A stretch of DNA of 64,000 bases, taken from a virus. This document shows, one piece after another, positions 32,932 to 54,623 of the stretch. Below the pieces are notes generated by a model that saw only the letters and a list, made by a program, of their open reading frames with translations, had not been told where the DNA came from and made no database searches. The position numbers were made by a program, and so were the translations under genes. Every line of letters begins with the position of its first letter. The stretch's first letter is position 1. The stretch lies in the IMG/VR virus record IMGVR_UViG_3300036761_001580, positions 133,198 through 197,197 of that record. One strand, written 5' to 3'.

Positions 32932-32956
32932 CAAAGCCTCCTACGTTAGCCCCGTG

Positions 32957-38031: not shown

Positions 38032-38042
38032 GGCACCGCCCT

Positions 38043-39473
38043 CTACGACACGAGGCTGATGATGAGATCCGCCGCTTCCAAGTAGGCGTAGTCCATCGGA
38101 CCAATCAGGATGTCCCCCACCCCGGTCCCACCCTTGACCGCCAAGGTGACGTACACCCAATTGTCCACACCGCTAACGGACGCGACCTGAGCGTCGATGT
38201 CGAACTCCTCAACATCCATCCCAAGTTTCAACGAATTGATGTATGTGAGAACCTTGTCCCTAACGGAACCCAGAATAGTAGTCGGGTTGCCAGAACCAAC
38301 CTTCAATTCTGCCTCAACGACAATGCTCTTTTTCTGAGCCCAGCGATACAGCACATCGGAACCCATGACGAGGTACACGGGCTGTTTATACAGCGCCGTA
38401 ACGATATTGATCATCGCGTTGTATTGGTATACAATTCTCAAAGGAGCATTCAAAGCAGGGGCTGCCCCTCCGATGAGGAACCGGATCCCATCTCGGCCCC
38501 GGTTGCTGTAGGCGTAGATCCCCTCCCCGGTCACAACCTCGTAGTCGACCCCTTCGGTATAGTAGGTGGGCCCACTGGAGACAGCCGTAACCGAGATGAG
38601 CGGTTGCTTGGGAAGAGGAACCAGCTCACGCACACCTCGGTAGTAGGTGTCGTAGGTATCAGTAGCTGGAGCTGTAGACTTGATCCAGACATCTGACGCT
38701 CCCGCATCTTCAGATTGACGCTCCAAGTTTGGATCAGCCCCATAGACAACGTGGCTGTCTTCAATATTGCTCATCAAGTTCAATGCAAACGCTTTGAGTC
38801 CTGTAGGAGTGGCCTCCTGATTTCCTGTAATACGAGTCTGATACCGAATCGCCAGGTCAGAGTTCGTCTCCAACCCACGGCCTGTCGTAGTAGCTGACTT
38901 GTTCGTAACGTACTCGAAATCTGGAAACGACCGACGAAACTGGGTGATCGTGTAGGCCCCAACCATGGTGTTTCCGCCAGCAACCACGCTCACCGCGGCA
39001 ACATCGATCTCGTACCGTTGAGTCTGAACATTGTAGTACGATGACGGGGACACGGTCAATGGGCCGTACATAGTCTTCGTCTCGATTGTCCGGAAATTGA
39101 CAACCTGTCCAGTCTTCGGGTCCGTTTTAGTTGCCAACGGAAAATTCAAAGGGACTGTAATATCCGCAGAAGGAGGAAGCAATCGAGAAAAAGTAACGAC
39201 CGTATAGGAGGGGGAGCCCGTCCACCTAACCACGTTCTCGTTATAAACAAAAGCATCCAGATCCTCAGGATTGAAGGTCCCTGCATTCTGCATGCTCAAC
39301 AGTTGGCTGAGATACACGATGTTATCGTGAATACCCTTCATGACCTCGGACGGCGGGGTGATGTACAGGTCTCTGATCGGACCGATGTAAGTGTCAATAG
39401 TCTCATCACGAGACGCAATTCCGTTAGAAATAAGGTCCTCGAACTGGGCTACGGTTCTTCGCTGAATGACCAT
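38043..39473 (-). CDS. baseplate J-like protein (Mu gp47 / P2 gpJ / T4 gp6-like wedge)
   Basis: 476 aa. Synteny (after the gpW-like small gene, before fibre genes) and size. Call is from context plus general similarity, not a hard motif. Confidence 0.5.
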   Translation of the reverse strand: MVIQRRTVAQFEDLISNGIASRDETIDTYIGPIRDLYITPPSEVMKGIHDNIVYLSQLLSMQNAGTFNPEDLDAFVYNENVVRWTGSPSYTVVTFSRLLPPSADITVPLNFPLATKTDPKTGQVVNFRTIETKTMYGPLTVSPSSYYNVQTQRYEIDVAAVSVVAGGNTMVGAYTITQFRRSFPDFEYVTNKSATTTGRGLETNSDLAIRYQTRITGNQEATPTGLKAFALNLMSNIEDSHVVYGADPNLERQSEDAGASDVWIKSTAPATDTYDTYYRGVRELVPLPKQPLISVTAVSSGPTYYTEGVDYEVVTGEGIYAYSNRGRDGIRFLIGGAAPALNAPLRIVYQYNAMINIVTALYKQPVYLVMGSDVLYRWAQKKSIVVEAELKVGSGNPTTILGSVRDKVLTYINSLKLGMDVEEFDIDAQVASVSGVDNWVYVTLAVKGGTGVGDILIGPMDYAYLEAADLIISLVS

Positions 39474-39476
39474 GGT

Positions 39477-39911
39477 CTACCTCGTCGTCCCGCCCAAGGC
39501 GAAGTTCGGCAGGTTCCCTACCGAGAAGAAGTCCACACGCCACCTGAAAACCCGAGGATCGGTCGTGTCCCCCCAGATCTGAACCGGAGAAAAATCATCC
39601 AAAAGTTCTTTAAAGGTGCGCCGACTATATTGGAAGTTACGTTGCACGTATCGATAACGGTCCAGAGCATCTTTCACAAGCATCTGAAACTGGAACATCA
39701 GCGGCGTGGATCCCACTGGCGAAGGCTCTCCGTCAGTGGAACGACCAACAGCCTGCCTAAGGCTGGCCCCCAAACCACTTGGCCGTATATCCGTAGTCAA
39801 GATCATCCGACACTCTTGTTTGAGCTTATCAAGATCCGTAACTCTGTCGTAACCGTTGTTCGAAAATTTCCGAACCACATCCCCATTCACTACTTTTAGG
39901 GTCCAGCTCAT
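39477..39911 (-). CDS. small baseplate protein (gpW/gp25-like slot), 144 aa
   Basis: Position between the spike/hub genes and the J-like gene. Size typical of a baseplate wedge subunit. Confidence 0.35.
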   Translation of the reverse strand: MSWTLKVVNGDVVRKFSNNGYDRVTDLDKLKQECRMILTTDIRPSGLGASLRQAVGRSTDGEPSPVGSTPLMFQFQMLVKDALDRYRYVQRNFQYSRRTFKELLDDFSPVQIWGDTTDPRVFRWRVDFFSVGNLPNFALGGTTR

Positions 39912-39912
39912 C

Positions 39913-40413
39913 TTACGGCACCACCGATGCTGCTTCCATCTTGGCCCAATATATCGCGTCGTCGATGGACTCTACCAGTGCGACCAACTCGTTCTTGATC
40001 CCCTCCCAGTACTGAAAGAGGACCTCTACTTCGTCCATGAAGGATAGCACATTTTTGTAGCGTTCCCTATAGATGCTCAGAGCCGCTACAGAGAGGTCAA
40101 AAATCTGCAACGCAGGGTCCGTAATGAGCTGGTAAAACTCCGGGCACAGCTCCTTAAAAGGCCCTCCGGGTATGGCCGTCAGCGCGTTTCTGATCGTGTC
40201 AATGATGGCTTGAACGATGGCCCAAGCTGCCTCCTCGATGGCCTTCAGGATGTCGAGTTGGGAGAGTAAGGCTTTCAAGAGCTGGACCTGGAGGTCGATG
40301 AACTGGATGATCGCGAGTAGTATCGCCTTCAGAGCCTCCAGAAGAGGAGCGACTTGGGCGTACAGCCACTCCAGGATGCACTTCGCGATGGTTCCGCCTA
40401 CAGTGAAGGCCAT
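39913..40413 (-). CDS. hypothetical tail/baseplate protein, 166 aa
   Basis: Track ORF, tight spacing in the operon, helical composition. Confidence 0.4.
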   Translation of the reverse strand: MAFTVGGTIAKCILEWLYAQVAPLLEALKAILLAIIQFIDLQVQLLKALLSQLDILKAIEEAAWAIVQAIIDTIRNALTAIPGGPFKELCPEFYQLITDPALQIFDLSVAALSIYRERYKNVLSFMDEVEVLFQYWEGIKNELVALVESIDDAIYWAKMEAASVVP

Positions 40414-40420
40414 GTTTCAC

Positions 40421-41890
40421 CTACAACGTCATCGACTTCGTCGACAACGATCCACTCAAAGCGGCAGCAAGAGCCGTTGCCGCAGCCGCCAGGGCCGTGA
40501 ACTGAGCAGTCCCCGGTAGGAACACCGGGATCGCTGCCAGGGCCGTAAAAGCCGTGCTGGAGGCCGCAAGGTACGCCGCCAGCGCCGCGTTGAACGTCGT
40601 CCCCTTGATCAAGGGCTCGGACGCTCCGATCCCGAGCAGCATCAATGGAGAGTCCAGAGTCAAGGGACCGCCCACGCACGACATCACGCAAGGGCTCGCC
40701 CCCAGGGAGATCGAGGGGGCCGCCAGCGCGATGGACGCCGCCTTCAGGGTCATCGCCGCCGCGGCCGTCAGGTCCATCGTAGCGCCCGCAGTGGCACTCC
40801 AGGCTCCGGCCACCGTGAAGTCCATCTTCCCACCCACCTTCAGGCTGTAGTCGATTCCGACGTCCAAGGCGTACGTCGTAGTGGTTTTCCAGTTGACCAT
40901 CGTGTTCAGAACGGTCCAGGTCGAGGCCGGCGTGAACCACTGGAGCCCTACGGCCGTCTTGGCTGACACACCCCAGTTCCCCAGGTTGTCGGTCATCTCC
41001 ATCCACATGGGAACCATGCCCGAGGCGTCATCCATGACCTCCCGGAGGATCCTGACTCCGGTGCCTGTGAGAGCTACCGCGAGATCCGGAGAGAAGGTCG
41101 CTGGAGGCACGATCTGTGCCGTCAGGTCGTCGACCACCTCACCTTCAGAGGTGCGCACCATGATCTGACCCGCAGGGAATGGGATCGTTGCTCTCTTAAC
41201 GTAGTGAGTGTGCTCCTGTGCCACGCTGCCGAACATCACGTCATAGACTGGCATCTCCGAAGTATCAACAGGAGTCAAAAGACGCTTCACAGAGCCCGAC
41301 CTCGACTCCGAGGCCCCACCGTAGCGCTGATGGATGAGATCCGACTGGAGGGTCACTTCGTTCCGGGGCTTGTCCAGTGTGATCGAGTGCGATCCGGCTG
41401 TCAGTGAGATGCGGTCACCCATGTAAAACGCGCAGCCCCTCGCGCTCTTGAAACTCCAGTCTCCTGGACGGAGACGCTTACCCGAAGCATCACCCCAGCC
41501 GATCCCCCCACGGTCCTCGGTGCTGTCGTCAAGACGCTTCATAACGCGAAAGTCCACAGTGCTGTATCCAAGGGCGTGAGCCTTACCCTTGGTATCGAAC
41601 GCCACAAGGATGACGTCATCCAGCTGCGGACAATAAACACCCCAGGAAAATCTCAAATAATTTTTATCAGTATCACCCTCCTGCGTAGGAGCAGAAAATC
41701 CTATGAGGGGGATAGGTATCGTACGAGGATCTCCACCATCAAGAAACACTACACCAACGGTACCCTCCTCCAGATGCAAATCCTTCACCTGCACCTTGTG
41801 TATTGTAGAGTAATACTCCCGGTGTAGACGACGGTCTTCCAGAATCGAAGAAGTAGCCGGATTCGTATTTATACGCCCACAACCACCCAT
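40421..41890 (-). CDS. baseplate central spike / hub protein (gpV/VgrG-like), 489 aa
   Basis: Position in the Mu-like order. C-terminal Ala/Thr/Leu/Ser-rich repetitive tail (TAGATMDLTAAAAMTLKAASIALAAPS..) typical of spike C-termini. Confidence 0.4.
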   Translation of the reverse strand: MGGCGRINTNPATSSILEDRRLHREYYSTIHKVQVKDLHLEEGTVGVVFLDGGDPRTIPIPLIGFSAPTQEGDTDKNYLRFSWGVYCPQLDDVILVAFDTKGKAHALGYSTVDFRVMKRLDDSTEDRGGIGWGDASGKRLRPGDWSFKSARGCAFYMGDRISLTAGSHSITLDKPRNEVTLQSDLIHQRYGGASESRSGSVKRLLTPVDTSEMPVYDVMFGSVAQEHTHYVKRATIPFPAGQIMVRTSEGEVVDDLTAQIVPPATFSPDLAVALTGTGVRILREVMDDASGMVPMWMEMTDNLGNWGVSAKTAVGLQWFTPASTWTVLNTMVNWKTTTTYALDVGIDYSLKVGGKMDFTVAGAWSATAGATMDLTAAAAMTLKAASIALAAPSISLGASPCVMSCVGGPLTLDSPLMLLGIGASEPLIKGTTFNAALAAYLAASSTAFTALAAIPVFLPGTAQFTALAAAATALAAALSGSLSTKSMTL

Positions 41891-41897
41891 GACAACC

Positions 41898-44456
41898 TCA
41901 GTAGAAAGCGTCCGGATCCTTAGGAGCCGACTGCTTCGAAATATAGGGTTTTTTACTTGTCAGTAAGGCCGCATAACTGAAAGGCATATCCCCTCCAAAA
42001 TGACGGAACACCTCCATCCTGTTTCCTCCGGGCTGAAGCTCTCCCTTCCACCCACGAGCGTAATTCACGTTGACCGCAGTGTCACAAGAGCTGTTGACAG
42101 CAATGCTATGCTGGCAGCTCACGATGTTCGCCACGTAGTTCCTCTGCCTCCAGTATAGAGGTCGGTTCACCATCAATCCGAAGTGCGGCAGGATCTGTAT
42201 ATTCAAGGACCTTGCCTCGGAGTTAGACCTACGGAGATCGATAGCGGCGAAGACCGCAGCCGCCTCATCGGTCACCACCTCCGTCCAAGGGCTCTTCTCA
42301 GAGGCAGGTCGGAAACCCAAGAGACCGGCCAGCTCGGGGGCTATCACGAACTGGGTATGCCGCGTGTCTCGGTTGTTCAGATCTTGTCCCTGTTTCGCGA
42401 TATTCCCTGGGGTACACCTCGCTACGGTTTTTAAACCGCTGTCACTCACTGCGTTGCTGAAGCCGTAGGTCTCATGCTTGTCTATAGTGAAATATGCCCC
42501 GTAGTTCATCTCCCCACCGTCGGTCAGGGAGGCATAACGAGTGGAGCCCGACTCAAAGGCATGCTCGGATCCGTAGCCCTCAGTGAGAAGACTGAGGTCC
42601 GAAGACATCTGCATCATCTCGTAGATCTGGTCTTCCGTGTATTTGGTACTACCCTCAGCCCACCCCTGCAAGTTCTCCCGCGCAGTCTGAATCGCGGATT
42701 CGATGTCCGCGTTGCTAACGGTAGCCCCTTCGTAATCGAACATCCAAGGGTCGAAATCGTAGAAAGGCATCTCGAAGACGAGATCACCCTTGGGAGTGGC
42801 GTAGAAGCAGAACTGGATCTGATCCGCTGCATCGTACAGAAAAGTAAGACGATCCTTGAACTCGGAGTGCAAGCCGCCCCCGGCCCCGGCCATCATCTCA
42901 TTCAGAACTCCCGAAGCAGTACCCATTGCCAGCCCCGAGGGCGCGACATAGAATACACGGCCCCCGCCAACGGGGTAGTCCTCTTCGTGCTGCCCAATCT
43001 GAGTGATAATGTCGTAAGGTGTCGTCATCTGCGACTTGTAGGCCTGGGCGGCTGCGGTCTTCCCCATGATCTCCGGATCCTTAGAAGTGACTCGATGGTG
43101 GATGTAATCGTTCAGTTTCCGGAGTTCGGCAACATCGAGATGCTCACCACCCATAGATTCTTCCAAGGACCACCCAAGACGGGCGGCCTCCAGCATCGTG
43201 GGAGGAGGACTTCCAAGGAATATAGCATGAACGCCGTACTTCTCGTTCTTCCTCTTGAACATCGCCTCTCCGCGAGGATTACAGATCGGCGGAAGATTAG
43301 CGCCAGTAAGCCGATTGAGCTTATAACCCTCCAGATACTGCTTCAAGAGCTTCGTATTCTCTGTGGGGCTCAACGCCGCGATCTCATCGGCGCTCATACC
43401 AGTTGCGGTATTCATCAAGTAGATGTTACCTTCCGCGGTACTCATGAACGCAAGGGCGTAATCAGTCATCTCGGAAAGGGTTCCCCTATAGGAGTCCAGA
43501 CCGAAGAAGAGGAGTTCCAAAATCTCATACACGGAGAAATAAGCAAACAGCTCCTGATATGGCACCCAGTTTATGGAACCAACGTTCTGGAAAATCGGGA
43601 ACAGAGCGGCCATCGCAGGATCAAGAACCGCATCGACATTCATCTGGAAGAAGGAGTACCGCGCCAGCTTGGACACGTCAGTACCCGAGATAGTAACAAC
43701 AGACTCCTGGTTCACCCCGCGGTCCTCCACAAAACCATCCACGAAGCCAGCGAACATCCAATACCAAACAGTGGGACTAAATGGATCCCTGAACGCGATC
43801 CTGATGGGGTCATTGGGATGGAAAATGCAATCGCCTTCAGTGAGGGGATACACATACCGCGCAGTGGTGTCCCCCTCGAAGACGTTTTGGTACATAGGAT
43901 CGTCTTTTTTGTCCGCATAGAGTTCATCCCATTTCGGAATGATAACACTGGACTTCTTGGCAAGGACTACCGGCTTGATGGTCGCAGGCACGGATCCGTA
44001 CGTCCAGTTGTTTCCGCCCTGCGCGGTTTTCAATTTTTTATAAAAGTCATCTACCACCCCGGCCATCTCCGCCGATTGCTCAGAATTCATGTACTTCTGC
44101 ATATACTTGTACACTTCAGCAGGATCTTCACCAGCATTGTCCGCCTGAAAACGTTGCGTGCTCATATAAGCAGTCTGGTTCTGTCCCAGGGTAGTCGCCA
44201 GCCAGTCTCGACTACTGGCGATCACCGTCATGTCCATGTGGTCCAAGATGTACTTGTCACCCATGTTAGCCAGAGCGATAGTGCACGTCCCCGGGGACCG
44301 ATCCATGCTTCCACCGGATTGATTCACCCTGACTTCAATGACGTCCCCGGACACTTCTTGCCCATAGATGAAAACACGAAAAGCCGGGAACGCTGCACGG
44401 TAGATCCCTTCCTGGGATGAGGTTCCAGTAGCCTGATTTTTCAATATACCGTCCAT
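41898..44456 (-). CDS. large tail/baseplate hub-associated structural protein, 852 aa
   Basis: Located between the tape-measure genes and the spike (the Mu P/Q slot). No catalytic motif recognised. Confidence 0.45.
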   Translation of the reverse strand: MDGILKNQATGTSSQEGIYRAAFPAFRVFIYGQEVSGDVIEVRVNQSGGSMDRSPGTCTIALANMGDKYILDHMDMTVIASSRDWLATTLGQNQTAYMSTQRFQADNAGEDPAEVYKYMQKYMNSEQSAEMAGVVDDFYKKLKTAQGGNNWTYGSVPATIKPVVLAKKSSVIIPKWDELYADKKDDPMYQNVFEGDTTARYVYPLTEGDCIFHPNDPIRIAFRDPFSPTVWYWMFAGFVDGFVEDRGVNQESVVTISGTDVSKLARYSFFQMNVDAVLDPAMAALFPIFQNVGSINWVPYQELFAYFSVYEILELLFFGLDSYRGTLSEMTDYALAFMSTAEGNIYLMNTATGMSADEIAALSPTENTKLLKQYLEGYKLNRLTGANLPPICNPRGEAMFKRKNEKYGVHAIFLGSPPPTMLEAARLGWSLEESMGGEHLDVAELRKLNDYIHHRVTSKDPEIMGKTAAAQAYKSQMTTPYDIITQIGQHEEDYPVGGGRVFYVAPSGLAMGTASGVLNEMMAGAGGGLHSEFKDRLTFLYDAADQIQFCFYATPKGDLVFEMPFYDFDPWMFDYEGATVSNADIESAIQTARENLQGWAEGSTKYTEDQIYEMMQMSSDLSLLTEGYGSEHAFESGSTRYASLTDGGEMNYGAYFTIDKHETYGFSNAVSDSGLKTVARCTPGNIAKQGQDLNNRDTRHTQFVIAPELAGLLGFRPASEKSPWTEVVTDEAAAVFAAIDLRRSNSEARSLNIQILPHFGLMVNRPLYWRQRNYVANIVSCQHSIAVNSSCDTAVNVNYARGWKGELQPGGNRMEVFRHFGGDMPFSYAALLTSKKPYISKQSAPKDPDAFY

Positions 44457-44467
44457 CTAGGTCTCCG

Positions 44468-45247
44468 CTACTCAAGCTCATTGAAGAATTGGGTCCCCAA
44501 CGAGAGTGAAATGTACCTAAAAATATCATCCATGGATGGCATCGTCTCCGTCGCCACGAAGCTGAACGAGTAGTTCTTACTAAACGGGTTGGACGCATCG
44601 TCCGTGAATTCCAAAACCCGGTCAAAATACCCAATGAATGTAATCATGGCGTTACCTAAGATAGGGCTCGTATACATAAAGTAGGACTTATTCGGAATTC
44701 CGGAAAACGGATCTATCACGGGTTCCCGCGTCATGCTGTATAGATTCCAGAAGTTCAGCAACTTCGAAGCACCCGCCAAAGTCTCTACATCAAGGCCCTC
44801 CTGCTTCGTCTGCGATTTCAAAAAGTCACGGAGCCTCTTGGTCTGCTTGGAGACCACACTGTTTCGTTGCATCCCCGTCCTGATATTTATGTTCCCCGTA
44901 CTTCCCGAGAACGCTATATTGATAACGTCGTTGTTCCGACCCTTCGCATTGGTCCAGTGAAAAAACACCGCGCCAGACTGAGTGTCCCTCCTGGTGATCC
45001 TCTTGTTCTGCGTAAAGGTCACCGTCTCGGGGTTCATCTTCATACGCACAGGATCGATGTCGTTCCGAGTCCTGTGATCCGAACTGAAGACAAAAGGAAC
45101 CCGGTAAGACACATCCTCGTAGGGATTAAGAATTCGCTCAAGTATACGCTCAGCAGAAGGGGCTTGGATCCCATTGCTAGTACCGAAGGCCTCCATCATG
45201 TTCTTCCAAAATTGTTGCTTCGTAATAGCCATGTATACACCTATCAA
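44468..45247 (-). CDS. tail protein, 259 aa (unassigned)
   Basis: Track ORF directly downstream of the tape-measure paralog cluster. Confidence 0.45.
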   Translation of the reverse strand: MIGVYMAITKQQFWKNMMEAFGTSNGIQAPSAERILERILNPYEDVSYRVPFVFSSDHRTRNDIDPVRMKMNPETVTFTQNKRITRRDTQSGAVFFHWTNAKGRNNDVINIAFSGSTGNINIRTGMQRNSVVSKQTKRLRDFLKSQTKQEGLDVETLAGASKLLNFWNLYSMTREPVIDPFSGIPNKSYFMYTSPILGNAMITFIGYFDRVLEFTDDASNPFSKNYSFSFVATETMPSMDDIFRYISLSLGTQFFNELE

Positions 45248-45265
45248 ACCCCGCCGGAGGCAGGG

Positions 45266-48001
45266 CTATTGAAATACGGCTTCGCCCTCAACCCGTTTCC
45301 CCGTCTCTTTGTCCCACATACCTCCTGCGATGGGGACAACCAGACCTCGGCCCTTTTTCCAACCAGATCCGCTTTCATGCCCACTACCTGTGGGGCGGTG
45401 GATGAACCTCGTAGCCCCCTTCGTCCAGTCTCCAGTACCCTTATCCCCACGAAGAATGCTACGCGCGAAGTCTATGGTCTCCGGATCCGGACGGGCTCCT
45501 GAAGCAAAATTCCTTCTGCCGGCCTTCCCGTACTTCTTGTTCCCAGCATCGCTCGCTCCCCAGCCCTTCTCGGCAGTAATGGCCTTCGCGAGCTTACCCC
45601 CTCCACCCTTTTTGAGGCCACCTACGCGGTTCAACGCAGTCCAAGCGATACCCAGCTGTTCCTTTCTACGGTCATCTCGGTACCTGCCGGACTCGCTCTG
45701 AATCATCCGTGCCAGAGCCTCCACGTCCTCACTGGTAAAAGAGCCCTCTTTGGACAATTGCATACTAGAGAACGTCCCTGGAGCGCCTCCGTAACCGCTG
45801 ATATTGGTGAAATCGAACCCGCACCGAGGACAATTTCCCGAGATGAGGATATTGATGCTCCCCTCGGCATCCACACTCTGCACCTGAAGATGCAAACCCC
45901 CGCCGACCCATTTGTCACCCCAGTCCTGAACAGAGCCCGCCTTGGTGCCCTTAGAACCCTTAGAGGACGAAGCTCCAGGAACAGGTCGAGGAGGTACGAT
46001 GTCCTGAGTGAAAGGAGACCCCTTCTCCAGATCAGCAGCAGGGATGTTGATACCCCCCAAGACCGGAGTACCGCCGCCTTTAGGAGATTTGGACAGAGAG
46101 CTAGACCCATACGGATCGTAGTCCCAAGCCTTCTTCAGGGCCTGCAACGAGGGCCCCATGATGTCACTCGCCATACCCTTGGCAGAGGCAATCATCTGGT
46201 CGAGGCCGCGTCCCATCTTTGCTTTGTTCTTCCCCTGGTTGCCCAGGAGGTTTTCAATATCTTGCGCCAGCTCACTTTGTGCCTTGGTGTTAAAAGTAAT
46301 GGCGTTGACAATGAACTGCGGCATGGCCTTGAGGTATGCAATAAGGTATGCCAAAGCGGTAATGACGTATCCCATCAACCCTTGACCAAAGTTAGCCAAA
46401 CCCTTCAACCACTTGTTCATCATGAGTTCGAACTTGCTTCTTTTCTCTGCCTCCGTATGAAACGAGTTCTTCAGAATGGTGATGTTATCCTTCGCTGCTT
46501 TCGCGGCTTGAACCATATTTCCTTCGCGAGCGTGCTTCCCAATAGTAGCAATCAAACGGGCCCCCTCAAACCCCAGGCCCATAGAGGCTTCCATGAAGTA
46601 CCGGGCTGCATCTTCATCTTCCCCAGTAGCCTTCATCGCCATGTCGTAAATGGTAGTCACAATGTGAACGACCTCATTTGTGTCCTCCCCATCAAGAACA
46701 CGCAAGAAGGCGTCCATCATCTTCTGTCTCGCTTCCAAGCCCTTCCCGTACCCCAAACGCTCTCCCAGGGCGACCTTCCAGTTGTCACCCATCTTTGCCA
46801 CGCCACCAGCGAACTGTTGAAGACCAACGGCCGCCTGCTTCCCGGCAAACTGCTTGGGCACCCCCATCTTCGAGAAGGCATCCGTAACGTGCACATAGAT
46901 GTCCACTACGTTATCAATATTATAGCCCATCCGAGCCAACTCGGAACTAGCGTCCTCGACGTTCTTCACAAACTGCATAGCACCCACACCAGAGTCCCGA
47001 CCGACCATGTACATGCGGAGAAGGGAATCCTTCGCCTCATCAGCCGTCTTCCCATAATCCGCCATCATGCCGACCATCCGCTTCGCGCTCTCCCCGCCCG
47101 GAAGTTCAAACATCTTATCCAAGGCAAGAGTCACCGTCACCGCGTTCGATTCCACATCCTTGAAGACTGACTTCATCGGAGACATCATCTGGGAGACGCT
47201 GAAGCCTCCGTCAACGAACGCCTGCGCGGTAGCCTGGATTTCTTCACGTTGGATGCCCAAGAATCTCTGGAAGGTTTCTTGAATCGCAGACAACCGGGAA
47301 GTACCTTTTGCGAGCGCTCCCTTGACGCCGTCATCGTATGCTGCAATGAGAATATTTTTCATCTCTCCCGACTGGGCACGAACACGGTCTCTATCCATGT
47401 ACCCGTAAGCCATGATGCCAATGAATCCCGCCACGATAGCCGCGGGCTTGGGTATCTTCAACTTCGACATCATTCCGCCGATCCTACCCTTGACAGTCCT
47501 CACTTCTGAGGTGAGGTATCTTCCGATAGGGCCGCGCTTTTTCTTCTTCCCCTTGGATCCTTTGGAAACGACCCCTCCTTGAGCCGTACCCCCTCCAAGG
47601 CCGCCCCCAACGCCCTCACCATCGTCACCCTCAGAGGGTGCAGTAGCCTCCGTCACCGCGGCCTCTGCCCTCTTGGAGAGGCTCTCAAAGCCCTGCTCGG
47701 CACCAGTTATCGCCCCCCGCATCCCCTCGAACACGGAATCGAACTCTGCTGAAAGACCGCTGAACTTACCTGCTATGGAACTGATGTACTCCTCGCTGGC
47801 TCCGATGGCTTTCGCGCCTTCCAGCAATCGAGGATCACCCGATATTTCGTCAATAGTTGCCTTGAAGCCCTCTCGCAAGCTGTCCAACAGCGAATCGAAG
47901 GACTCGGTGTTGGCACGAGACATATCTGTAATTGCAGCACCAAGATCCGTAAATCTGGTACGGGCCTCTTCGAGCTGCTGGATGTCAACCAATCCACTCA
48001 T
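45266..48001 (-). CDS. tape-measure-like protein, paralog 3 of 3, with C-terminal SleB/Hydrolase_2-like cell-wall hydrolase domain
   Basis: N-terminal coiled coil. TM-like segment AAIVAGFIGIMAYGYM followed by the conserved RVRAQSGEMKNIL box shared with the two upstream paralogs. C-terminus CPRCGFDF...EDVEALARMIQSESGRYRDDRRKEQLGIAWTALNRV resembles the SleB-type hydrolase core (LAR.I..E..GE....AV..V.NRV). Confidence 0.65.
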   Translation of the reverse strand: MSGLVDIQQLEEARTRFTDLGAAITDMSRANTESFDSLLDSLREGFKATIDEISGDPRLLEGAKAIGASEEYISSIAGKFSGLSAEFDSVFEGMRGAITGAEQGFESLSKRAEAAVTEATAPSEGDDGEGVGGGLGGGTAQGGVVSKGSKGKKKKRGPIGRYLTSEVRTVKGRIGGMMSKLKIPKPAAIVAGFIGIMAYGYMDRDRVRAQSGEMKNILIAAYDDGVKGALAKGTSRLSAIQETFQRFLGIQREEIQATAQAFVDGGFSVSQMMSPMKSVFKDVESNAVTVTLALDKMFELPGGESAKRMVGMMADYGKTADEAKDSLLRMYMVGRDSGVGAMQFVKNVEDASSELARMGYNIDNVVDIYVHVTDAFSKMGVPKQFAGKQAAVGLQQFAGGVAKMGDNWKVALGERLGYGKGLEARQKMMDAFLRVLDGEDTNEVVHIVTTIYDMAMKATGEDEDAARYFMEASMGLGFEGARLIATIGKHAREGNMVQAAKAAKDNITILKNSFHTEAEKRSKFELMMNKWLKGLANFGQGLMGYVITALAYLIAYLKAMPQFIVNAITFNTKAQSELAQDIENLLGNQGKNKAKMGRGLDQMIASAKGMASDIMGPSLQALKKAWDYDPYGSSSLSKSPKGGGTPVLGGINIPAADLEKGSPFTQDIVPPRPVPGASSSKGSKGTKAGSVQDWGDKWVGGGLHLQVQSVDAEGSINILISGNCPRCGFDFTNISGYGGAPGTFSSMQLSKEGSFTSEDVEALARMIQSESGRYRDDRRKEQLGIAWTALNRVGGLKKGGGGKLAKAITAEKGWGASDAGNKKYGKAGRRNFASGARPDPETIDFARSILRGDKGTGDWTKGATRFIHRPTGSGHESGSGWKKGRGLVVPIAGGMWDKETGKRVEGEAVFQ

Positions 48002-48002
48002 G

Positions 48003-50297
48003 CTATGGTGTCCCCATCCTTGGATTCAACGTCGGGTACTGCTCCACCTGAGACTGTAACACAGCATTTCCCAAATCTTCTGTAGATATTGGGGGCTGGG
48101 CCGGATTGATCACTGGGCCGGAAGAGGCCCCCACCGCAGGCTGTGCGGTGCGTTCTCGCGCTTTCGGATCATCCGCTCCTACGTTCCTGGTGACCAATAC
48201 ATTGGACAATGCGGTCGCCACTGCCCCGCCGAGAATACCCGTCGCGGAGACCAACTTGAAGTGCTTCTCCGCAGGTCCTTGCAGACCTGTCCCCTCCAGC
48301 AACTCCTCCTCATGACGAAATCTCTTCTCCTGTTCGGCTTCGGGATCTCCAAAAACACCACCCCACGAGTCCTTAGGATCGGTCTTCATCCCTCCAGGCA
48401 GTGGTGGCGGAGGGGGTGCCTTGGGATCCCAGCGCATAGCTCCAATAGCGGGAGCGAGAGAGTCCCCAAACTCCTTCCCTAAGGCCGTCAGAACTCCATC
48501 CGTACCCTTCAACATCAGGTCCCACCCATCGGCCATATTTTTAAAAACCTGACGATTCGCGTAATACATTTTCAACTTGAGTCCATAAGCAGTGCGGCCC
48601 CCCGAGCCCTCTTCACCCTGAATCATCATAGACTTCAATCCGAGTATGCAAGCCGCGATGAGAGAAACCAATATCGCCATAAGACCAACCCCGATGTTCG
48701 ACATGGAAGTAACCAGCTCACGACGGGTCTTAAACAACTCGGAAACCATCTTTCCTTCCGTAGTAAAGGCCTGCTTCAGATTAGCGCGAGCCTCCTTCGA
48801 CATACTTTCCAGGGTATCACCCTTCTCTAAGATCCCCAAGGTATCGACCAAGATCGCCGCCGAACGGTTACTCGTTCGTAGGTTCTGCTGCACGGCCAAG
48901 ATCGCCTTACTTCTTTCAGGAGTCGTTCTCTTAATAACCAGAGTCCCGTAAGAACGAATGAGAGACTCCAAAAAGCTCTCGTCCTTCCCGGAAGAAATCC
49001 TACGAAGACCGTCACTGAACCGAATAAGAAGCTCATGTGCATTCGATTCAGTATCTTTGAAAATGTCTCTCGCCAAGGCCACTTTCATTTGGTCATCCAT
49101 CTTCGTGAACGCCGTCATGAGGTCCACAGCGACCCCCTCCACCTCACGGCCGGCGTACTGGGACTCCAAGCCCATGCTCGCGTAGTGTCCTAACAACTTC
49201 TCCACGAAAGAACCAACGGTCTCTGCGTTGATGCCCATATTTGAGAGAGGATCCGCAGCAGCCATGACGATACGAGTAAAATTACTGACCCCTATGGAAC
49301 TCCGCTCTCCCGCAGCGGTCATCTTTACGGTCAGATCCGCCGCAGAGTTGAGTGACATCCCGTAATCACGAACTAGGGTTACGATGTTCTCCATCGATTC
49401 CGATGTAGAAAAGTTGTAATGTTTTCCCAACCCAAGAGAGAGGGTAATAACGTTGTGCCCTACACGCCCCAGACCCTTATCGTAGCGCCTCAAAGCGTCA
49501 GTAGCAGAAAATCCATTGTCTACCATCACCTTGGCAGCAGCCTGGACCTCTTTACGACCCACACCCCAGTACCACTGCGCCCGCTCACCCCAATTCGCAA
49601 ACCAACGAGTAGCCTTCCGTCCCGCAGCAGACATGACACTGTCTACACTGCCCTCGAAAATGTTAGCCATCTCCCCCATCTCGGCACGACGTCGATTATG
49701 CTCCGTGTATCCGAGAGCAATAGAACCTATAACAGCACCAAGAAATCCTGAAGAAAGCTGACCAGGGATGTTACTCAAGATACTCTTAATTTTGTCCTTG
49801 GTCTTCTTCATCTCCTTTTCAACAAACTCAATCAGCCTGGAAGTTCTCTTCTTATGCCTCTTGACCATCTCCTCGGCAGAGGTAACAGAAATGTAGATTC
49901 TGGATTCCGCACCATCGAGCTTCTGCTCTGCTTTCCGAGGATCTATTCCAGCTAAAGAAGACTCCTGAACCTGCTGCACCGCCGCCGATGCGGTGTCCGC
50001 AGCGCCAGCCCCCTCTTCGGAAGGTCCAATATTCTCAAAAACCCCTTTGAGGTCACCGACACTACGAACAGCACCATCAATAGCACCCTTGATGCGCTCA
50101 GCCTCCGCAGAAAAAGCAACAGCAGGAGAGGGCATAGAAGTAGGAACGGATGCAGACGCCAAGGAGCCCAGAGAGACCTTCATGTCACGGCCCAGGAGTT
50201 GTACTGCCGAGCCCAGGTCCGTGTACGTGCGGTGTACAGAATCAACCTGGTCACTCAGGTCCGCAAGATCCAGGTCTATCAAAAAAGAGTTCTCCAT
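48003..50297 (-). CDS. tape-measure-like protein, paralog 2 of 3 (764 aa)
   Basis: Shares the GFLGAVIGSIALGYTEHNRRRAEMGEMANI box, AQWYWGVGRKEVQAAAKVMVDNGF and HYASMGLESQYAG motifs with the flanking paralogs. Helical, with a second TM-like stretch (IGVGLMAILVSLIAACILGL). Confidence 0.65.
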   Translation of the reverse strand: MENSFLIDLDLADLSDQVDSVHRTYTDLGSAVQLLGRDMKVSLGSLASASVPTSMPSPAVAFSAEAERIKGAIDGAVRSVGDLKGVFENIGPSEEGAGAADTASAAVQQVQESSLAGIDPRKAEQKLDGAESRIYISVTSAEEMVKRHKKRTSRLIEFVEKEMKKTKDKIKSILSNIPGQLSSGFLGAVIGSIALGYTEHNRRRAEMGEMANIFEGSVDSVMSAAGRKATRWFANWGERAQWYWGVGRKEVQAAAKVMVDNGFSATDALRRYDKGLGRVGHNVITLSLGLGKHYNFSTSESMENIVTLVRDYGMSLNSAADLTVKMTAAGERSSIGVSNFTRIVMAAADPLSNMGINAETVGSFVEKLLGHYASMGLESQYAGREVEGVAVDLMTAFTKMDDQMKVALARDIFKDTESNAHELLIRFSDGLRRISSGKDESFLESLIRSYGTLVIKRTTPERSKAILAVQQNLRTSNRSAAILVDTLGILEKGDTLESMSKEARANLKQAFTTEGKMVSELFKTRRELVTSMSNIGVGLMAILVSLIAACILGLKSMMIQGEEGSGGRTAYGLKLKMYYANRQVFKNMADGWDLMLKGTDGVLTALGKEFGDSLAPAIGAMRWDPKAPPPPPLPGGMKTDPKDSWGGVFGDPEAEQEKRFRHEEELLEGTGLQGPAEKHFKLVSATGILGGAVATALSNVLVTRNVGADDPKARERTAQPAVGASSGPVINPAQPPISTEDLGNAVLQSQVEQYPTLNPRMGTP

Positions 50298-50304
50298 ATG
50301 TTCC

Positions 50305-52671
50305 CTAAGGAGGAGGTACCCTCTGCGCCTCCGCTTTGTTAGACGCTGTTTTTATAAGACCTCCATCAACCTTGGCATTCGCGCCACCAACATTCTCAGG
50401 CATCTCTGTCTGGTAGTCATCATACTCTGGTGAAGCATTTTCTTTAGCCCTACCCTTATACCGGGCCTTCTCAACAGCGGCGAGCTTATCGGGAAGATCC
50501 TCAGCCGCCACGGCAGCGTCCTCCCAGGAATCATGAGAATCCAGAATAGCTTGTTCCGGATTTTCATTAAGAGATCTCCCAAAAGAAGAAGAATTAAGAT
50601 CATACAACTTGCGAAGAAACCAAGCCTTCACATGTGCGTACCCTTGCGCTGCTTGTATATCTAGCTGCCTCTTGAACTCTTCATCCGTAAACATCTGCAA
50701 AAAGTCATCCTTCAGCTCTTTGAGAGCAGCTTTCGCCTCTGCTGCGGAGGTTATAGTCTTAACGCCACCCTCCGATGGAGCGTCCCATTTGAGGACATCA
50801 ATTATGGGTTGAAGATCATTCTTGAACTCCGTCTTCATCGCCGCAGCAGCATCTTTAAGACCAGTGTTGGCCGCATCAATGCCGGCACTCATACTATCGC
50901 CCAACTTGTCGTATTGAGCCCTAATATCCACAAGAAACTTTTTGTCGCCAGTGGGTAAGGCAGCGGCAATAATCTCCGGAAGATACTTGATGCTGAGTAC
51001 AATGGCCCCTACCAAACCTGCCAAGACCTTCAGGAGGCCCTGACCAATGGCAGAGATCGCATTAGTAAGATCTCTTGTCAGCTTCGCAAGATCAGAAATC
51101 TTCTCACTCTCAGTAGAAAGAGCATTTTTAATGAGCCCTTGCTGCTCAACAGAAAGCTCCGAGAGCTTGTTACCCTTCGCCAACTCGGTAGTCGCATCAT
51201 ACAAGCCGGCAGCTGTCCTGTTGTCACCGATCTTGGACTCTATGAGGCGAATCGCCTGCGCCCGGGTCTTGCCTCCTTGAGAGGCCCACTCCCTCAGAGA
51301 AAGAAGTGTCCGAGTAACGAAGTCCTCGCTGCCGGACTGACGCGCCCTCTTGAAGCCGTCCTCCCATTTCTGCCGAGCATCCACGCCTGTCAGCTCGGGG
51401 AACATCCTCTGAGCTATCATGGCTTTCATGGAAGGGTCCATCCCCGCAATCCCTTGTGAGATCCCGTTGATGAAATTAGTCGCCTGGTTTCCTGCGTACT
51501 GGGGGCTGAGACCCATCTTCTCGTAGTGCTTCTGGATGGTGCCCATGATTCCGGCAACCTCGGCCACGTCGACACCATACTGCTGCATGGCAGAAGCCCC
51601 GGAAATGATGGTATCTGTGAACTTGCTGATGCCCATGGCGCTCTTCTGACCGGCAAACGCGATTCTAGAATACTTGTCCGTCGCCTCCTGCAAGCTGTCT
51701 CCCAAGGACGTAGTAATCTTGGTGATGTTGCTGATAGAGGTCCCGGTATCCTGGTTGAAGTGTTTATCCAACGCGATGGACATGATACCGACATGCTGGC
51801 CCGCAGCACCCAGGGATGAATTGAACGTAGCCATGATCTCATGGGCCTTGTAACCGGCGTCGACCATGGCCTTCAGAACACCTTGAGTTTCCTCACGGGA
51901 GATGCCGTAGTACCACTGCGCAGTCTCCTGGAATTGGGAAAACCACGATGTTACCTTTCTAGACGCATCGGAAGATATAGCTTCTCCCGAAGCCTCAATA
52001 ACATTCAGCATCTCCCCTTTCTGTGCCTTGAGCCGGTCCCTCTCCGTAACCCCTAGAACCATCGCTGCAAGGAGCCCAGATACTACACCCCCACCCAGAA
52101 TCCCTCCAGGAACGTGGCTTGCGATCTCCTGCGCCTTGCCCGCAGCTGCTTCCAGCTCGGACTCCAAATACTTTTTGACACGGTTCACATCCTCTTCAGA
52201 CTTCTTATCCGTGTCAGCGACAACTCGAATAACGTTCTCAGCGTTCTCTTGGGCAATCTCAACGGAAGCACCTGCAAACGCAGCACCTTCCAGCATGACA
52301 ACCACCTGGCTCTGAGCCTGCTCCATCGCCGCCCCGGAGGAACCCGACGCCGGGCCCCCAGAAGCCTTCATCCGAGACACTTCACTGGCGATCTTAATGC
52401 CGTGCTGAGAAACGGTATTCAGCATCTCCGAAAAAGATCCAGTGCCCTCCTTTATGTGCTGGATGGAACGCTCCATCTGCGGATTCAACGAACCGATCAT
52501 CGTGGTGACGCTCGACGCCCGGGTCTGCAACGTGTTGAGATCCCCCGAAACCGCAGAAACAAGGGCCCGCAACGACCCGCCAAAAGCCGTGTAGGACTTA
52601 GTCGCCTCCGAGATCTGGTCTCGGAACTTGTCGAAGTCCCACCGCAACAAATATGATTCTACCTGAACCAT
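50305..52671 (-). CDS. tape-measure-like protein, paralog 1 of 3 (788 aa), in the canonical TMP position after the G/G-T chaperones
   Basis: Shared boxes GLLAAMVLGVTERDRLKAQKGEMLNVI, AQWYYGISREETQGVLKAMVDAGY and HYEKMGLSPQYAG. Immediately downstream of the frameshifted chaperone pair. Confidence 0.7.
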   Translation of the reverse strand: MVQVESYLLRWDFDKFRDQISEATKSYTAFGGSLRALVSAVSGDLNTLQTRASSVTTMIGSLNPQMERSIQHIKEGTGSFSEMLNTVSQHGIKIASEVSRMKASGGPASGSSGAAMEQAQSQVVVMLEGAAFAGASVEIAQENAENVIRVVADTDKKSEEDVNRVKKYLESELEAAAGKAQEIASHVPGGILGGGVVSGLLAAMVLGVTERDRLKAQKGEMLNVIEASGEAISSDASRKVTSWFSQFQETAQWYYGISREETQGVLKAMVDAGYKAHEIMATFNSSLGAAGQHVGIMSIALDKHFNQDTGTSISNITKITTSLGDSLQEATDKYSRIAFAGQKSAMGISKFTDTIISGASAMQQYGVDVAEVAGIMGTIQKHYEKMGLSPQYAGNQATNFINGISQGIAGMDPSMKAMIAQRMFPELTGVDARQKWEDGFKRARQSGSEDFVTRTLLSLREWASQGGKTRAQAIRLIESKIGDNRTAAGLYDATTELAKGNKLSELSVEQQGLIKNALSTESEKISDLAKLTRDLTNAISAIGQGLLKVLAGLVGAIVLSIKYLPEIIAAALPTGDKKFLVDIRAQYDKLGDSMSAGIDAANTGLKDAAAAMKTEFKNDLQPIIDVLKWDAPSEGGVKTITSAAEAKAALKELKDDFLQMFTDEEFKRQLDIQAAQGYAHVKAWFLRKLYDLNSSSFGRSLNENPEQAILDSHDSWEDAAVAAEDLPDKLAAVEKARYKGRAKENASPEYDDYQTEMPENVGGANAKVDGGLIKTASNKAEAQRVPPP

Positions 52672-52674
52672 GCT

Positions 52675-53957
52675 CTACTTCATCACATCCAGAGTCACCA
52701 CGGGACGATCATCTACCTTAGGAGTGGGCTTGCTCAGGCCTAGATCCACCTCTTCCAACTCCGGCGCTCCTTGAGGTTCAAGAACCTTCTTGCCATACTG
52801 GTTTTTTATATCTGAACGAACCCTCCCAATAGTTCTTGCACTCTTCTCCACAAGGGGATCATCTCCAAGATCATCCTTGGATAACACGAGGTTCTCCAAG
52901 AGCATCTGCGTGTCGCGTCCGCCCCAATTCATGGCCTTGAGGAGGTCTTCCGGAGCGTTTTCGAACTCAACATCCCCCTCGTCCTTCATGAACGCTTCCA
53001 GCGCCTCAGGAGTCAGCTCCGCGACTCCGGTATTAACAGTCACTCCGTCCTTGCGAGCAACATCAGCGACTTCCAGCTGCTGAAGAACTTCCTGCTGGTT
53101 GATGTACTCTTCCGTCCTACTTTTTATCGCTGCCAGGACATTATCGTTTCCGATAAGAAGCACGAGAGGCAGACACTCCTCATCCCCCGGAAGACGTAGC
53201 CTTCCAGTTCTTTCGTCTTCGACCGGAAGCAAGTTCAAACCCAGCATGGAGACCACTTGCTTCCTCACAGCCTCAGAAATAGTCCGGATGTCGTCATAGC
53301 GTTGCTTCTCCTGAAGGTTCATCGACTCCAGCTCAAAAATCCACTGGGTATCGTTCATTCCTTTCAGCCGAGGATCCCCTAACGGGATCATCCTCTTGGT
53401 CAGGACCTTCGCCTTGATCCTGAGCTTCGCTACTAGCCTTCTCCAGATGGGGTAGATTCGGTCCCAGTGGGCTTCTCGCCCTTCTCCGAACCCACCCCTG
53501 AGGATTTTTTTATGTTGCCCTGGGCGGCCTCCCTGCGTTCTTCCAGAGCCTTCCAGTATTTCCACAGGTCTTCCAGCATCTCCGGAGGCCTCGCGCCCAG
53601 CCACTCCATCATGTGCTCGGCAGAAAAATACTTCTGCGTGAAGGTGCCTTTGCTCTCCACAAGACGGAGAAGGTTCCGCCCCTCTTCGGTCTCCTCCCAT
53701 TGAGAACGGAAGAACTCGAAAATGGGGACACCATCGACCTCGCGAATACCGATAGAGAGCGTCGGGAGCCTCCAGGAGGTGACGGTGGACAACCCGCTGC
53801 CCATGTTGATGAAGCCATTCCTCCAGTTGGACTCCTCCTCGTTCAGAAGACGAATTCGGAATTTCCGGCCCTTCCAGGTAAACACCTCCTCCAGGCACTC
53901 ACCGTCGAGTTCCTTCGCGAGGTCGTCCAAGATTCTTTTCGGATTGTCCGTCGACAT
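52675..53957 (-). CDS. tail assembly chaperone G-T fusion product made by -1 programmed ribosomal frameshift at A_AAA_AAA (53511..53505)
   Basis: The G frame (53957..53433) and the -1 frame (track ORF ending at 52675) overlap by ~70 nt. The zero-frame codons read AAC ATA AAA AAA TCC, giving a classic X_XXY_YYZ heptamer A_AAA_AAA. After the slip the -1 frame reads KKILRGGFGEG...MIPLGDPRLKGMNDTQW.. through to the stop at 52675. The gene pair sits between the tube and tape-measure genes, as in nearly all long-tailed phages. Confidence 0.6.
53433..53957 (-). CDS. tail assembly chaperone (gpG-like), 174 aa
   Basis: Track ORF directly between the tube genes and the tape measure. Contains the slippery heptamer near its 3' end. 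Confidence 0.6.
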   Translation of the reverse strand: MSTDNPKRILDDLAKELDGECLEEVFTWKGRKFRIRLLNEEESNWRNGFINMGSGLSTVTSWRLPTLSIGIREVDGVPIFEFFRSQWEETEEGRNLLRLVESKGTFTQKYFSAEHMMEWLGARPPEMLEDLWKYWKALEERREAAQGNIKKSSGVGSEKGEKPTGTESTPSGEG

Positions 53958-54012
53958 GGCGCTTTCGCTCCCTTCTCCCGGGGTTTCCGGGGTGTTTTGT
54001 CGATGACGAACT

Positions 54013-54618: not shown

Positions 54619-54623
54619 GGATC

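Follow-up and report, generated by a model that had tools for sequence, protein, structure and literature searches.

A tape-measure-like tail protein carrying a divergent SleB-type C-terminal domain in an uncultured lineage of large phages

The analyzed stretch of DNA (hereafter, the window) comprised 64,000 nt, or approximately 31% of a 205,564-bp JGI contig. According to the ORF list, a gene on its minus strand (45266..48001) encodes a 911-aa tape-measure-like protein with a putative peptidoglycan-cleaving domain at the C-terminus. A search with the full-length query recovered the identical protein from this contig (P0001), where it is annotated only as a 'hypothetical protein', as well as 25 further homologues. 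The gene is closely packed, with intergenic gaps of 1 nt and 18 nt, and is preceded on the same strand by paralogue 2 (48003..50297; 764 aa), which lacks an enzyme domain and a CPxCG motif, and by paralogue 1 (50305..52671; 788 aa), which lacks an enzyme domain and any cysteine. The three tandem paralogues were 26-30% identical over about 420-500 aa based on BLASTP, and the helical body of the 911-aa protein matched the other two at 26% identity (E 5e-39). Tube-like phrog_985 genes were found upstream (54013-55070), and a tube-initiator-like gene (44468-45247) and a baseplate J/phrog_6 wedge gene (38043-39473) were found downstream. The gene is therefore located between tube and baseplate genes, the position of a tape-measure protein (TMP). 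This order was also present in the related loci L002, L004, and L005, the first of which showed a weak Phi812_tail_tube match. These results bear out the original prediction that the protein is the third of three tape-measure paralogues, insofar as the three paralogues are real and lie inside a tail module.

The N-terminal residues 1-626 (46124..48001, minus strand, as for all features below) form a predicted α-helical body common to paralogues 1 and 2, on the basis of AlphaFold2 secondary structure and BLASTP. Helix was predicted nearly throughout residues 7-626, with low to moderate pLDDT, indicating a long and mainly α-helical polypeptide. Within this body, hydrophobic segment 1 (residues ~186-205, AAIVAGFIGIMAYGY; 47387..47446) contained a conserved G200 and conserved hydrophobic columns in alignment A1 and is a possible membrane-inserting stretch. 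Hydrophobic segment 2 (residues ~541-565, GLMGYVITALAYLIAYLKAMPQFIV; 46307..46381), identified by a Kyte-Doolittle scan, was common to all three paralogues and may also have a membrane role. The body is followed by a Gly/Ser/Pro/Lys-rich linker (residues 627-700; 45902..46123), predicted to be disordered (pLDDT <50, no secondary structure) and variable in sequence and length in alignment A1. A predicted β-hairpin (WVGGG...; residues 703-728; 45818..45895; alignment A2), with strands at residues 703-710 and 716-724 in the AlphaFold2 model, ends in the G-N-C-P-R-C-G knuckle. The divergent SleB/Hydrolase_2-type domain, a putative lytic transglycosylase, spans residues ~755-872 (45386..45739), and the protein ends in a poorly conserved tail (residues 873-911; 45269..45385) with pLDDT of 38-65 and a variable sequence in alignment A2. 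The peptides quoted in the original prediction were present in the ORF, with NCPRCG at residues 723-728 and EDVEALARMIQSESGRYRDDRRKEQLGIAWTALNRV beginning at residue 758. The interval that it assigned to both, 45380-45720 (residues 761-874), contains the hydrolase core but leaves out the CPRCG motif (45818-45835) and the first residues of helix 1, since the start of the domain is near 45739.

Homology at the sequence and profile level assigns the C-terminal domain to the SleB/Hydrolase_2 (PF07486) superfamily, as a divergent member. Searches of Pfam and PHROGs with the 911-aa protein or its isolated 211-aa C-terminus gave no match even at E<=10, and a direct Pfam scan thus did not return the PF07486 match by which the assignment was to be checked; an NCBIfam scan of the ORF gave nothing relevant. 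Because the window sequence alone did not reach the PF07486 gathering threshold (27 bits), membership was established via intermediate sequences. Six full-length orthologues passed this threshold at the aligned region (29.3-31.7 bits). One of them, P0019, was 35% identical to the C-terminal 220 aa over 179 aa (BLASTP, E 2e-21), and the aligned part includes its PF07486 region (31.7 bits). In an exhaustive search of 1.84 billion representatives, the domain profile matched 1052 proteins at E<=1e-3; PF07486 was detected at E<=0.01 in 14 of the 39 matches sampled. Proteins of ~200 aa were reached by the domain profile (A3) at E 1e-9 to 1e-19, and PF07486 was found at about threshold level in 8 of 91 sampled proteins (best 7e-22), with no other family there. 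Comparison of the domain set with the ~200-aa protein set by hhalign gave a probability of 99.9% (E 2e-34).

The AlphaFold2 model of the domain showed the SleB catalytic-domain fold, with a core pLDDT of ~90. Foldseek searches against PDB and BFVD placed 4F55 and viral 'cell wall hydrolases' at the top at non-significant scores (E 3.7, 0.65). In PDB, SleB was not reached by phmmer with the C-terminus, which gave a single chance match, or by profiles A1, A2, and A3; the broader profile A4 matched only 4FET and 4F55, weakly (E 0.42 and 1.3). Similarly, a word-indexed homologue search found nothing with the C-terminal 217 aa alone and succeeded with the full-length query. The SleB/Hydrolase_2 assignment of the original prediction was thus upheld on the basis of transitive homology, profile-profile comparison, fold match, and a conserved catalytic glutamate.

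This glutamate, Glu770 (codon 45692..45694; motif Q-S-E-S-G), is the putative catalytic residue and was invariant in alignments A2, A3, A4, and A5, including 18 of 18 TMP-type and 91 of 91 small homologues examined. It lies at the end of helix 1, as does the glutamate of the SleB YGE motif, and aligned in profile A4 with the leading Glu of YGESRGE in both 4FET (chain residue 120) and 4F55. The catalytic residue of SleB is reportedly E151 in Bacillus anthracis numbering, which we take to be the Glu matched by Glu770. Canonical SleB prefers spore-cortex peptidoglycan. The domain studied here is a putative lytic transglycosylase that would cleave the MurNAc-GlcNAc bond, and it presumably acts on the peptidoglycan of vegetative cells and not on muramic-lactam cortex. 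An essential catalytic glutamate has been described in SleB and in a SleB-like type VI secretion system (T6SS) effector (PMC12331253; PMC11148199).

The NCPRCG motif (residues 723-728; 45818..45835) forms a single CxxC knuckle, whose C724 and C727 are the sole cysteines of the 911-aa protein. C724, P725, C727, and G728 were invariant in alignment A2, with the consensus G-N-C-P-x-C-G-[LF]-x-[FY], and the CPxCG motif was found in most of the ~900-aa relatives, including orthologues with M15 or M23 domains. The knuckle is therefore part of the carrier and not of the hydrolase, since it is kept where the enzyme domain has been swapped. Neither alignment A1 nor A2 contained a conserved His or Cys partner, and a search for partner ligands in the paralogues and neighboring tail proteins gave nothing convincing. 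The 'zinc-ribbon-like' description in the original prediction did not hold, since a CPxCG-type knuckle with two Cys in 911 aa, belonging to the carrier, was found instead of the two knuckles and four ligands of a zinc ribbon. In addition, the JGI name of P0019, a C2H2 zinc finger, was ruled out, since there was no conserved His downstream of the CxxC.

Two to three tandem paralogues were found in related metagenomic loci wherever the upstream sequence was sufficient, and the enzyme was confined to the last paralogue, adjoining the baseplate genes, with one exception. This enzyme was Hydrolase_2 in most loci, M15 in L004 and L023, M23 in L017 and L018, and CHAP in L005. The exception, L022, had three paralogues without a detected enzyme domain or CPxCG; its last ORF reaches the end of the locus and is possibly incomplete. 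Four classes of peptidoglycan hydrolase thus interchange at one position, behind a conserved knuckle. That an exchangeable enzyme is carried by the last paralogue alone points to a role in wall degradation as part of the virion. The virion-associated lysin of the original prediction fits these comparative data (M15, M23, and CHAP at orthologous positions), and we infer the delivery through the tail that it also proposed.

Several other readings of the locus were considered. A catalytically inactive domain, serving only in peptidoglycan binding or as a structural plug at the tube tip, would be in line with a divergence sufficient to fail PF07486 directly, with the weak Foldseek scores, and with dependence on a single residue that can be checked. 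We regard it as improbable, as the Glu at the catalytic position is invariant across the TMP-type and small homologues, and the orthologous slots hold bona fide enzymes (M23, E 3.8e-25; CHAP, E 1.8e-8), which indicates selection for activity and not for binding alone. The tape-measure function of the 911-aa protein is a deduction from the gene position, the helicity, and, for paralogue 1 alone, matches below the cutoff (TMP_3, 20.8 bits vs 41; PhageMin_Tail, 16.1 vs 33.2); paralogue 2 gave 12.5 bits for TMP_3, also below the threshold. The protein might instead be a virion-borne active lysin that does not determine tail length, that is, a tail-internal, ejected 'pilot' protein. It would then act in the manner of phiKZ gp181 or a hub-associated lysin, with the three paralogues as cargo or channel-forming proteins. 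Consistent with this, the 911-aa ORF matched none of the curated TMP families (PF10145, PF20155, TIGR01760, and TMP PHROGs), two to three tandem paralogues of similar size are unusual for a tape measure, and the conservation of hydrophobic segments points to a function at the membrane. However, the gene occupies the canonical TMP slot immediately before the tube-initiator-like gene and the baseplate genes, has a helical body of ~626 aa, is accompanied by the weak TMP_3 and PhageMin_Tail matches on paralogue 1, and is in a tail module that shows no other TMP candidate, and we therefore consider a pilot protein rather unlikely. A further, equally speculative reading is that the paralogues form a heteromeric tape-measure bundle or an in-series stack in which the knuckle docks the exchangeable enzyme; the CPxCG is the sole cysteine pair in the ~2,460 residues of the three paralogues, which are otherwise essentially Cys-free, as are paralogues 1 and 2 themselves. 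In such an assembly, each tail may carry a defined, small count of enzyme heads, and the CPxCG could be a redox switch or a metal site between chains or proteins (cf. the zinc hook of Rad50). The knuckle could hold the SleB-type, M15, M23, or CHAP slot at the tube tip until ejection frees it.

The original prediction also suggested that the domain may substitute for an endolysin. Such a domain would double as or replace the endolysin and bring about lysis from within as infection ends. In agreement with this, no other Hydrolase_2, M15, M23, or CHAP domain was found in a six-frame translation of the window, and no lysin family was found among the ~38 ORFs scanned with Pfam. Nevertheless, the window covers such a limited part of the contig that the lack of a recognizable endolysin in the scanned ORFs tells little, and an endolysin that escapes recognition is likely because no family could be detected for many ORFs of the lineage. 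Free SleB-like 'cell wall hydrolases' are encoded by other phages, such as CB7_83 of the Vequintavirinae/Certrevirus and gp368 of PA5oct (PMC7344957, PMC11370258, PMC7318152), and those of Certrevirus phages and PA5oct have been proposed as endolysins (PMC7344957; PMC7318152), which also favors an endolysin role. CB7_83 and gp368 are small secreted or membrane-anchored proteins, a layout similar to that of the ~200-aa relatives from the domain profile, which have a hydrophobic N-terminus, and virions did not contain detectable gp368. In contrast, the enzyme here forms the C-terminal part of a tail protein of 911 aa, tethered to 750 residues of structural protein, and the gene is not a stand-alone lysin gene beside a holin or spanin. 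It is tightly packed in the tail module, flanked by a paralogue and the tube-initiator-like gene, and no holin- or spanin-like gene is adjacent. The location within the tail module, away from lysis genes, speaks against the suggested substitution, and we consider an endolysin role very improbable.

The domain resembles SleB/CwlJ (PF07486; 4FET, 4F55) in that its helix-1 motif contains the catalytic Glu and precedes an ...LNR motif. It differs in its ~20% identity, sub-threshold for Pfam, and in its fusion to a phage tail protein, at whose end it lies. The PG_binding_1 domain, signal peptide, and sporulation/YpeB context of a bona fide SleB orthologue were not found; in place of an N-terminal PG_binding_1 match, a 750-aa helical phage protein precedes the domain, and the neighbors are tail genes. 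Among jumbo myoviruses, phiKZ gp181 is said to be a very long tail-internal protein with a C-terminal domain of the lytic-transglycosylase type, and reportedly comprises one polypeptide of ~2,200 aa whose domain is of the lysozyme-like/SLT type. Here, a comparable length is distributed over three paralogous genes (788+764+911 aa), and the domain is of the SleB type. TMPs with lysin domains are well established as a class (review PMC6116005; TM4, PMC1796659), in which T5 pb2, TM4 Tmp, and the TMP of Staphylococcus aureus phage phiIPLA35 are likewise long helical proteins of the tail lumen with a module that degrades peptidoglycan at the time of infection (PMC6116005; PMC1796659). As in our protein, the enzyme is placed towards the C-terminal, baseplate end. 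Their modules are M23-like, Rpf/LT-like, or lysozyme/M23, in contrast to the SleB type found here, and they are single-copy siphovirus TMPs, whereas two to three paralogues and an apparently contractile tail were found here, with an invariant CPxCG knuckle before an exchangeable enzyme slot. The SleB-like type VI secretion effector T6EC3 has a single essential Glu, and its E108Q variant is non-toxic (PMC11148199). It shares with our protein the combination of a SleB-fold domain and a contractile injection machine, and its target is the periplasm (PMC11148199), but it acts as an antibacterial toxin rather than as a structural component of a phage, is paired with an immunity protein, and lacks a tape-measure carrier.

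Taken together, the 911-aa protein is probably the enzyme-bearing member of three tape-measure-like paralogues that fill the tail tube of a large (~205 kb) contractile-tailed phage, and its SleB-type domain most likely opens the host wall during infection. In this preferred reading, the protein would be present in the virion, with its C-terminus at the tube end nearest the baseplate, and would be expelled before the DNA upon sheath contraction. The SleB-type domain, with Glu770 as the single catalytic acid/base, would then act as a lytic transglycosylase and make local MurNAc-GlcNAc cuts, after which the tube and the tape-measure complex would cross the peptidoglycan. Finally, the hydrophobic segments would engage the cytoplasmic membrane and insert into it.

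No cultured relatives were found by megablast and tblastn among 50,697 phage genomes (INPHARED), and none were found in GTDB species genomes, which hence gave no host clue. The 'Moraphage' lineage, which is predicted to infect Bacteroidota and has yielded no TMP (PMC12619734), was dropped as a possible assignment because nothing linked it to the window, with its GC content of 52-62%. Contigs of the lineage, for which neither a cultured nor a prophage relative was found, reach up to 212 kb, and most of its tail genes match no family. Lysins borne by tape measures are already well known, and the present results overturn no current idea; they place a familiar phage strategy in an uncultured lineage of large phages. 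For this dark lineage, the identification of tape-measure-like genes together with a wall-breaching enzyme provides a functional anchor. The domain also belongs to a large divergent SleB/Hydrolase_2 branch that PF07486 misses, since most of the sampled profile matches were sub-threshold. Additionally, the natural domain-swap series, with four hydrolase classes behind one knuckle, could serve as a guide for engineering virion-associated lysins.

The C-terminal domain of the 911-aa protein encoded at 45266..48001 (minus strand, ATG start) genuinely belongs to the SleB/Hydrolase_2 superfamily, though it has diverged and falls in a branch mostly missed by the Pfam family PF07486. A direct Pfam scan, proposed in the original prediction as a check, gave neither a PF07486 match nor any other for the isolated C-terminus or the whole protein, even at E<=10. 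PHROGs and NCBIfam also had no match for the protein, phmmer of the C-terminus against PDB sequences gave a chance match only, and the C-terminus, used by itself as query in a word-indexed homologue search, found no relatives. The full-length query retrieved 26 relatives, one of them identical and located on a 205,564-bp JGI contig. A precomputed PF07486 label was present on nine of the 26; on re-scanning, six relatives exceeded the gathering threshold (29.3-31.7 bits, cutoff 27), with matches coinciding exactly with the region that aligns to the window protein's C-terminus. One of these six, P0019, shares 35% identity over 179 aa with the C-terminal 220 aa of the window protein (E 2e-21).

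Profile A3, built from 18 sequences of just the domain, was searched against 1.84 billion cluster representatives; 1052 proteins matched at E<=1e-3, of which 77 reached E<=1e-10. The best ~40 matches were ~900-aa proteins with the domain at the C-terminus; ranked below them were ~200-aa proteins that mostly have a hydrophobic N-terminus. PF07486 was detected at E<=0.01 in 14 of 39 sampled ~200-aa proteins and at about threshold level in 8 of 91 sampled proteins (best 7.4e-22), the latter sample yielding no other family. The window-type domain and the ~200-aa proteins matched each other in hhalign with a probability of 99.9% (E 2.3e-34). These ~200-aa proteins form a large set (P0053-P0169) with the same divergent SleB-like domain (ALARxIxSExG ... 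DPTxGAxxF); since only ~9% of them reach the PF07486 threshold, they look like an under-annotated subfamily.

Modelled with AlphaFold2, the C-terminal 220 aa had a core pLDDT of 88-97. Foldseek ranked the SleB structure 4F55 first against the PDB and 'Cell Wall Hydrolase / Spore_SleB' proteins first against viral models, neither significantly; the predicted structure agrees with the SleB/Hydrolase_2 identity. Among PDB sequences, a broader profile (A4) matched 4FET (E 0.42) and 4F55 (E 1.3), both SleB, and no others. In this alignment, the family's invariant Glu falls on the first Glu of SleB YGESRGE (chain position 120 in the 222-residue 4FET construct), which is reportedly the catalytic Glu (Jing et al. 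2012; Li et al. 2012). For both SleB and a SleB-like effector, a catalytic Glu is known to be indispensable (PMC12331253; PMC11148199). Glu770 of the window protein, within Q-S-E-S-G (codon 45692-45694, minus strand), is invariant in all four alignments (A2-A5). The similarity to P0019, the hhalign match and this conserved Glu bear out the identity originally proposed. The segment EDVEALARM... begins at residue 758 and the His of F-I-H is His868 (both minus strand). The interval first assigned to the feature, 45380-45720, corresponds to residues 761-874 and holds the enzyme core; the CPRCG motif, included in the earlier description, lies outside it (NCPRCG, residues 723-728; 45818-45835, minus strand).

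The adjacent minus-strand ORFs 50305-52671, 48003-50297 and 45266-48001 encode paralogues (26-30% identity over 420-500 aa, E 5e-39 to 4e-73), of which only the third bears a hairpin, the CPRCG knuckle and the enzyme. The full-length predicted model of this carrier comprises an almost uninterrupted helical body (residues 7-626), a disordered segment (627-700), a beta-hairpin ending at the knuckle (703-724) and the enzyme domain (757-870). Two hydrophobic segments of the body (~186-205 and ~541-565) are also seen in the paralogues. Curated tape measure protein (TMP) families gave no match for the carrier, and paralogue 1 matched TMP_3 and PhageMin_Tail, both below threshold. Of the earlier designation 'tape-measure paralog 3', the third paralogue is confirmed, and we infer the tape measure from position and architecture rather than from family assignment.

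In alignment A2 the knuckle, G-N-C-P-x-C-G-[LF]-x-[FY], shows no variation at either Cys, at the Pro or at the last Gly; it occurs in most ~900-aa relatives, including those bearing M15 and M23 domains. The three paralogues together contain 3 Cys in 2,463 aa, and across the loci examined paralogues 1 and 2 have almost no Cys. CPxCG is clearly under selection. The carrier has only 2 Cys in 911 residues, both in CPRCG, and the knuckle supplies two ligands only, which does not sustain the term 'zinc-ribbon-like'. The C2H2 finger label given to P0019 by JGI is likewise not supported. The knuckle may form a metal site between chains or between proteins, or may have a redox function; no convincing partner ligands were found in neighbouring tail proteins.

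Gene order was kept in the loci encoding relatives, for which 18 further IMG/VR loci (contigs of 23-212 kb) were added and all loci scanned with local HMMs. Among L002, L004-L023 and the window (45266-52671, minus strand), every locus with enough upstream sequence had two or three tandem TMP-like paralogues, and in all of these but L022 the enzyme was on the last paralogue only, adjoining baseplate genes. With this arrangement, the tape measure might be heteromeric or stacked in series. In L022, the scan found three paralogues and no enzyme domain or CPxCG; its last ORF reaches the locus end and may be truncated. The C-terminal slot held Hydrolase_2 in most loci, M15 in L004 and L023, M23 in L017 and L018, and CHAP in L005. 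Pfam and PHROGs agreed on the swapped domains (Peptidase_M15, Peptidase_M23 or CHAP in P0006, P0012, P0022, P0024 and P0026; M23 E 3.8e-25, CHAP 1.8e-8, M15_2 6.9e-9), and the hairpin and knuckle were retained upstream of them, save in the distant CHAP variant. That four unrelated peptidoglycan-cleaving families share one slot argues strongly, if indirectly, that the slot is selected for wall degradation.

The neighbourhood of the carrier gene is a tail module. The minus strand carries nearly all plausible genes of the window; gaps of 1 nt and 18 nt separate the carrier from the stop of the preceding ORF (48003-50297) and from the next one (44468-45247), which has a weak 'tail tube initiator' match. 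Two adjacent minus-strand genes, 54013-54618 (201 aa) and 54624-55070 (148 aa), match phrog_985 ('virion structural protein') and may encode duplicated tube-like proteins; the L002 counterpart of the latter weakly matches Phi812_tail_tube. Baseplate J (phrog_6) is at 38043-39473, and a 166-aa ORF within the baseplate block (39913-40413, minus strand) weakly matches internal regions of two 'tape measure' PHROGs (E 0.003-0.006). Long fibre-like genes lie beyond baseplate J, and the 1,580-aa product of 28192-32934 (minus strand; NosD/beta-helix E 2e-6; 25 cysteines) is probably a tail fibre or depolymerase. The GC content of the tail module (38000-54000) is 0.52-0.55 versus ~0.58-0.67 elsewhere in the window, and GC skew is markedly negative (-0.11 to -0.20) at 44 to 54 kb.

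The remainder of the window contains phage replication genes for PolA, an SNF2 helicase and a 5'-3' exonuclease-UDG fusion, the last a single 515-aa ORF (24132-25679, minus strand) with exonuclease N- and C-terminal domains (E 1e-25 and 1e-18) and a C-terminal uracil-DNA-glycosylase-superfamily domain (E 7e-26). A 229-aa ORF (6862-7551, minus strand) matches PhageMetallopep (PF18894; E 1.7e-9, above threshold). All reading frames of the window lack a second Hydrolase_2, M15, M23 or CHAP domain, and a Pfam scan of ~38 ORFs found no lysin family, which would fit the tail-protein domain substituting for an endolysin. However, the window covers less than a third of the genome, most of its ORFs match no family, and the enzyme-bearing gene belongs to a structural module; such substitution is unlikely.

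A role at entry is proposed for the SleB-type domain, which has the conserved Glu and occupies an interchangeable slot that ends a helical protein of the tail module. In the tail lumen, TMPs assemble into trimeric bundles with tip-anchored C-termini (PMC11329794), and they often carry virion-associated lysins (PMC6116005, PMC1796659). Based on these established properties, the carrier would be expelled at infection, the domain, acting as a lytic transglycosylase, would nick glycan strands locally, and the hydrophobic segments would contribute to bridging the membrane. A parallel is known from the contractile T6SS, one of whose effectors is SleB-like: in the periplasm of E. coli it is toxic, and a Glu-to-Gln substitution abolishes its activity (PMC11148199).

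Relatives of this lineage were absent from 50,697 phage genomes and 185,579 species genomes. Tape-measure-borne lysins are textbook knowledge, and a SleB-type domain in this position in an uncultured large-phage lineage is a new instance of a known strategy. More unusual, as hypotheses, would be the multiple paralogues with a single enzyme bearer and the invariant lone CPxCG knuckle preceding an exchangeable enzyme slot.
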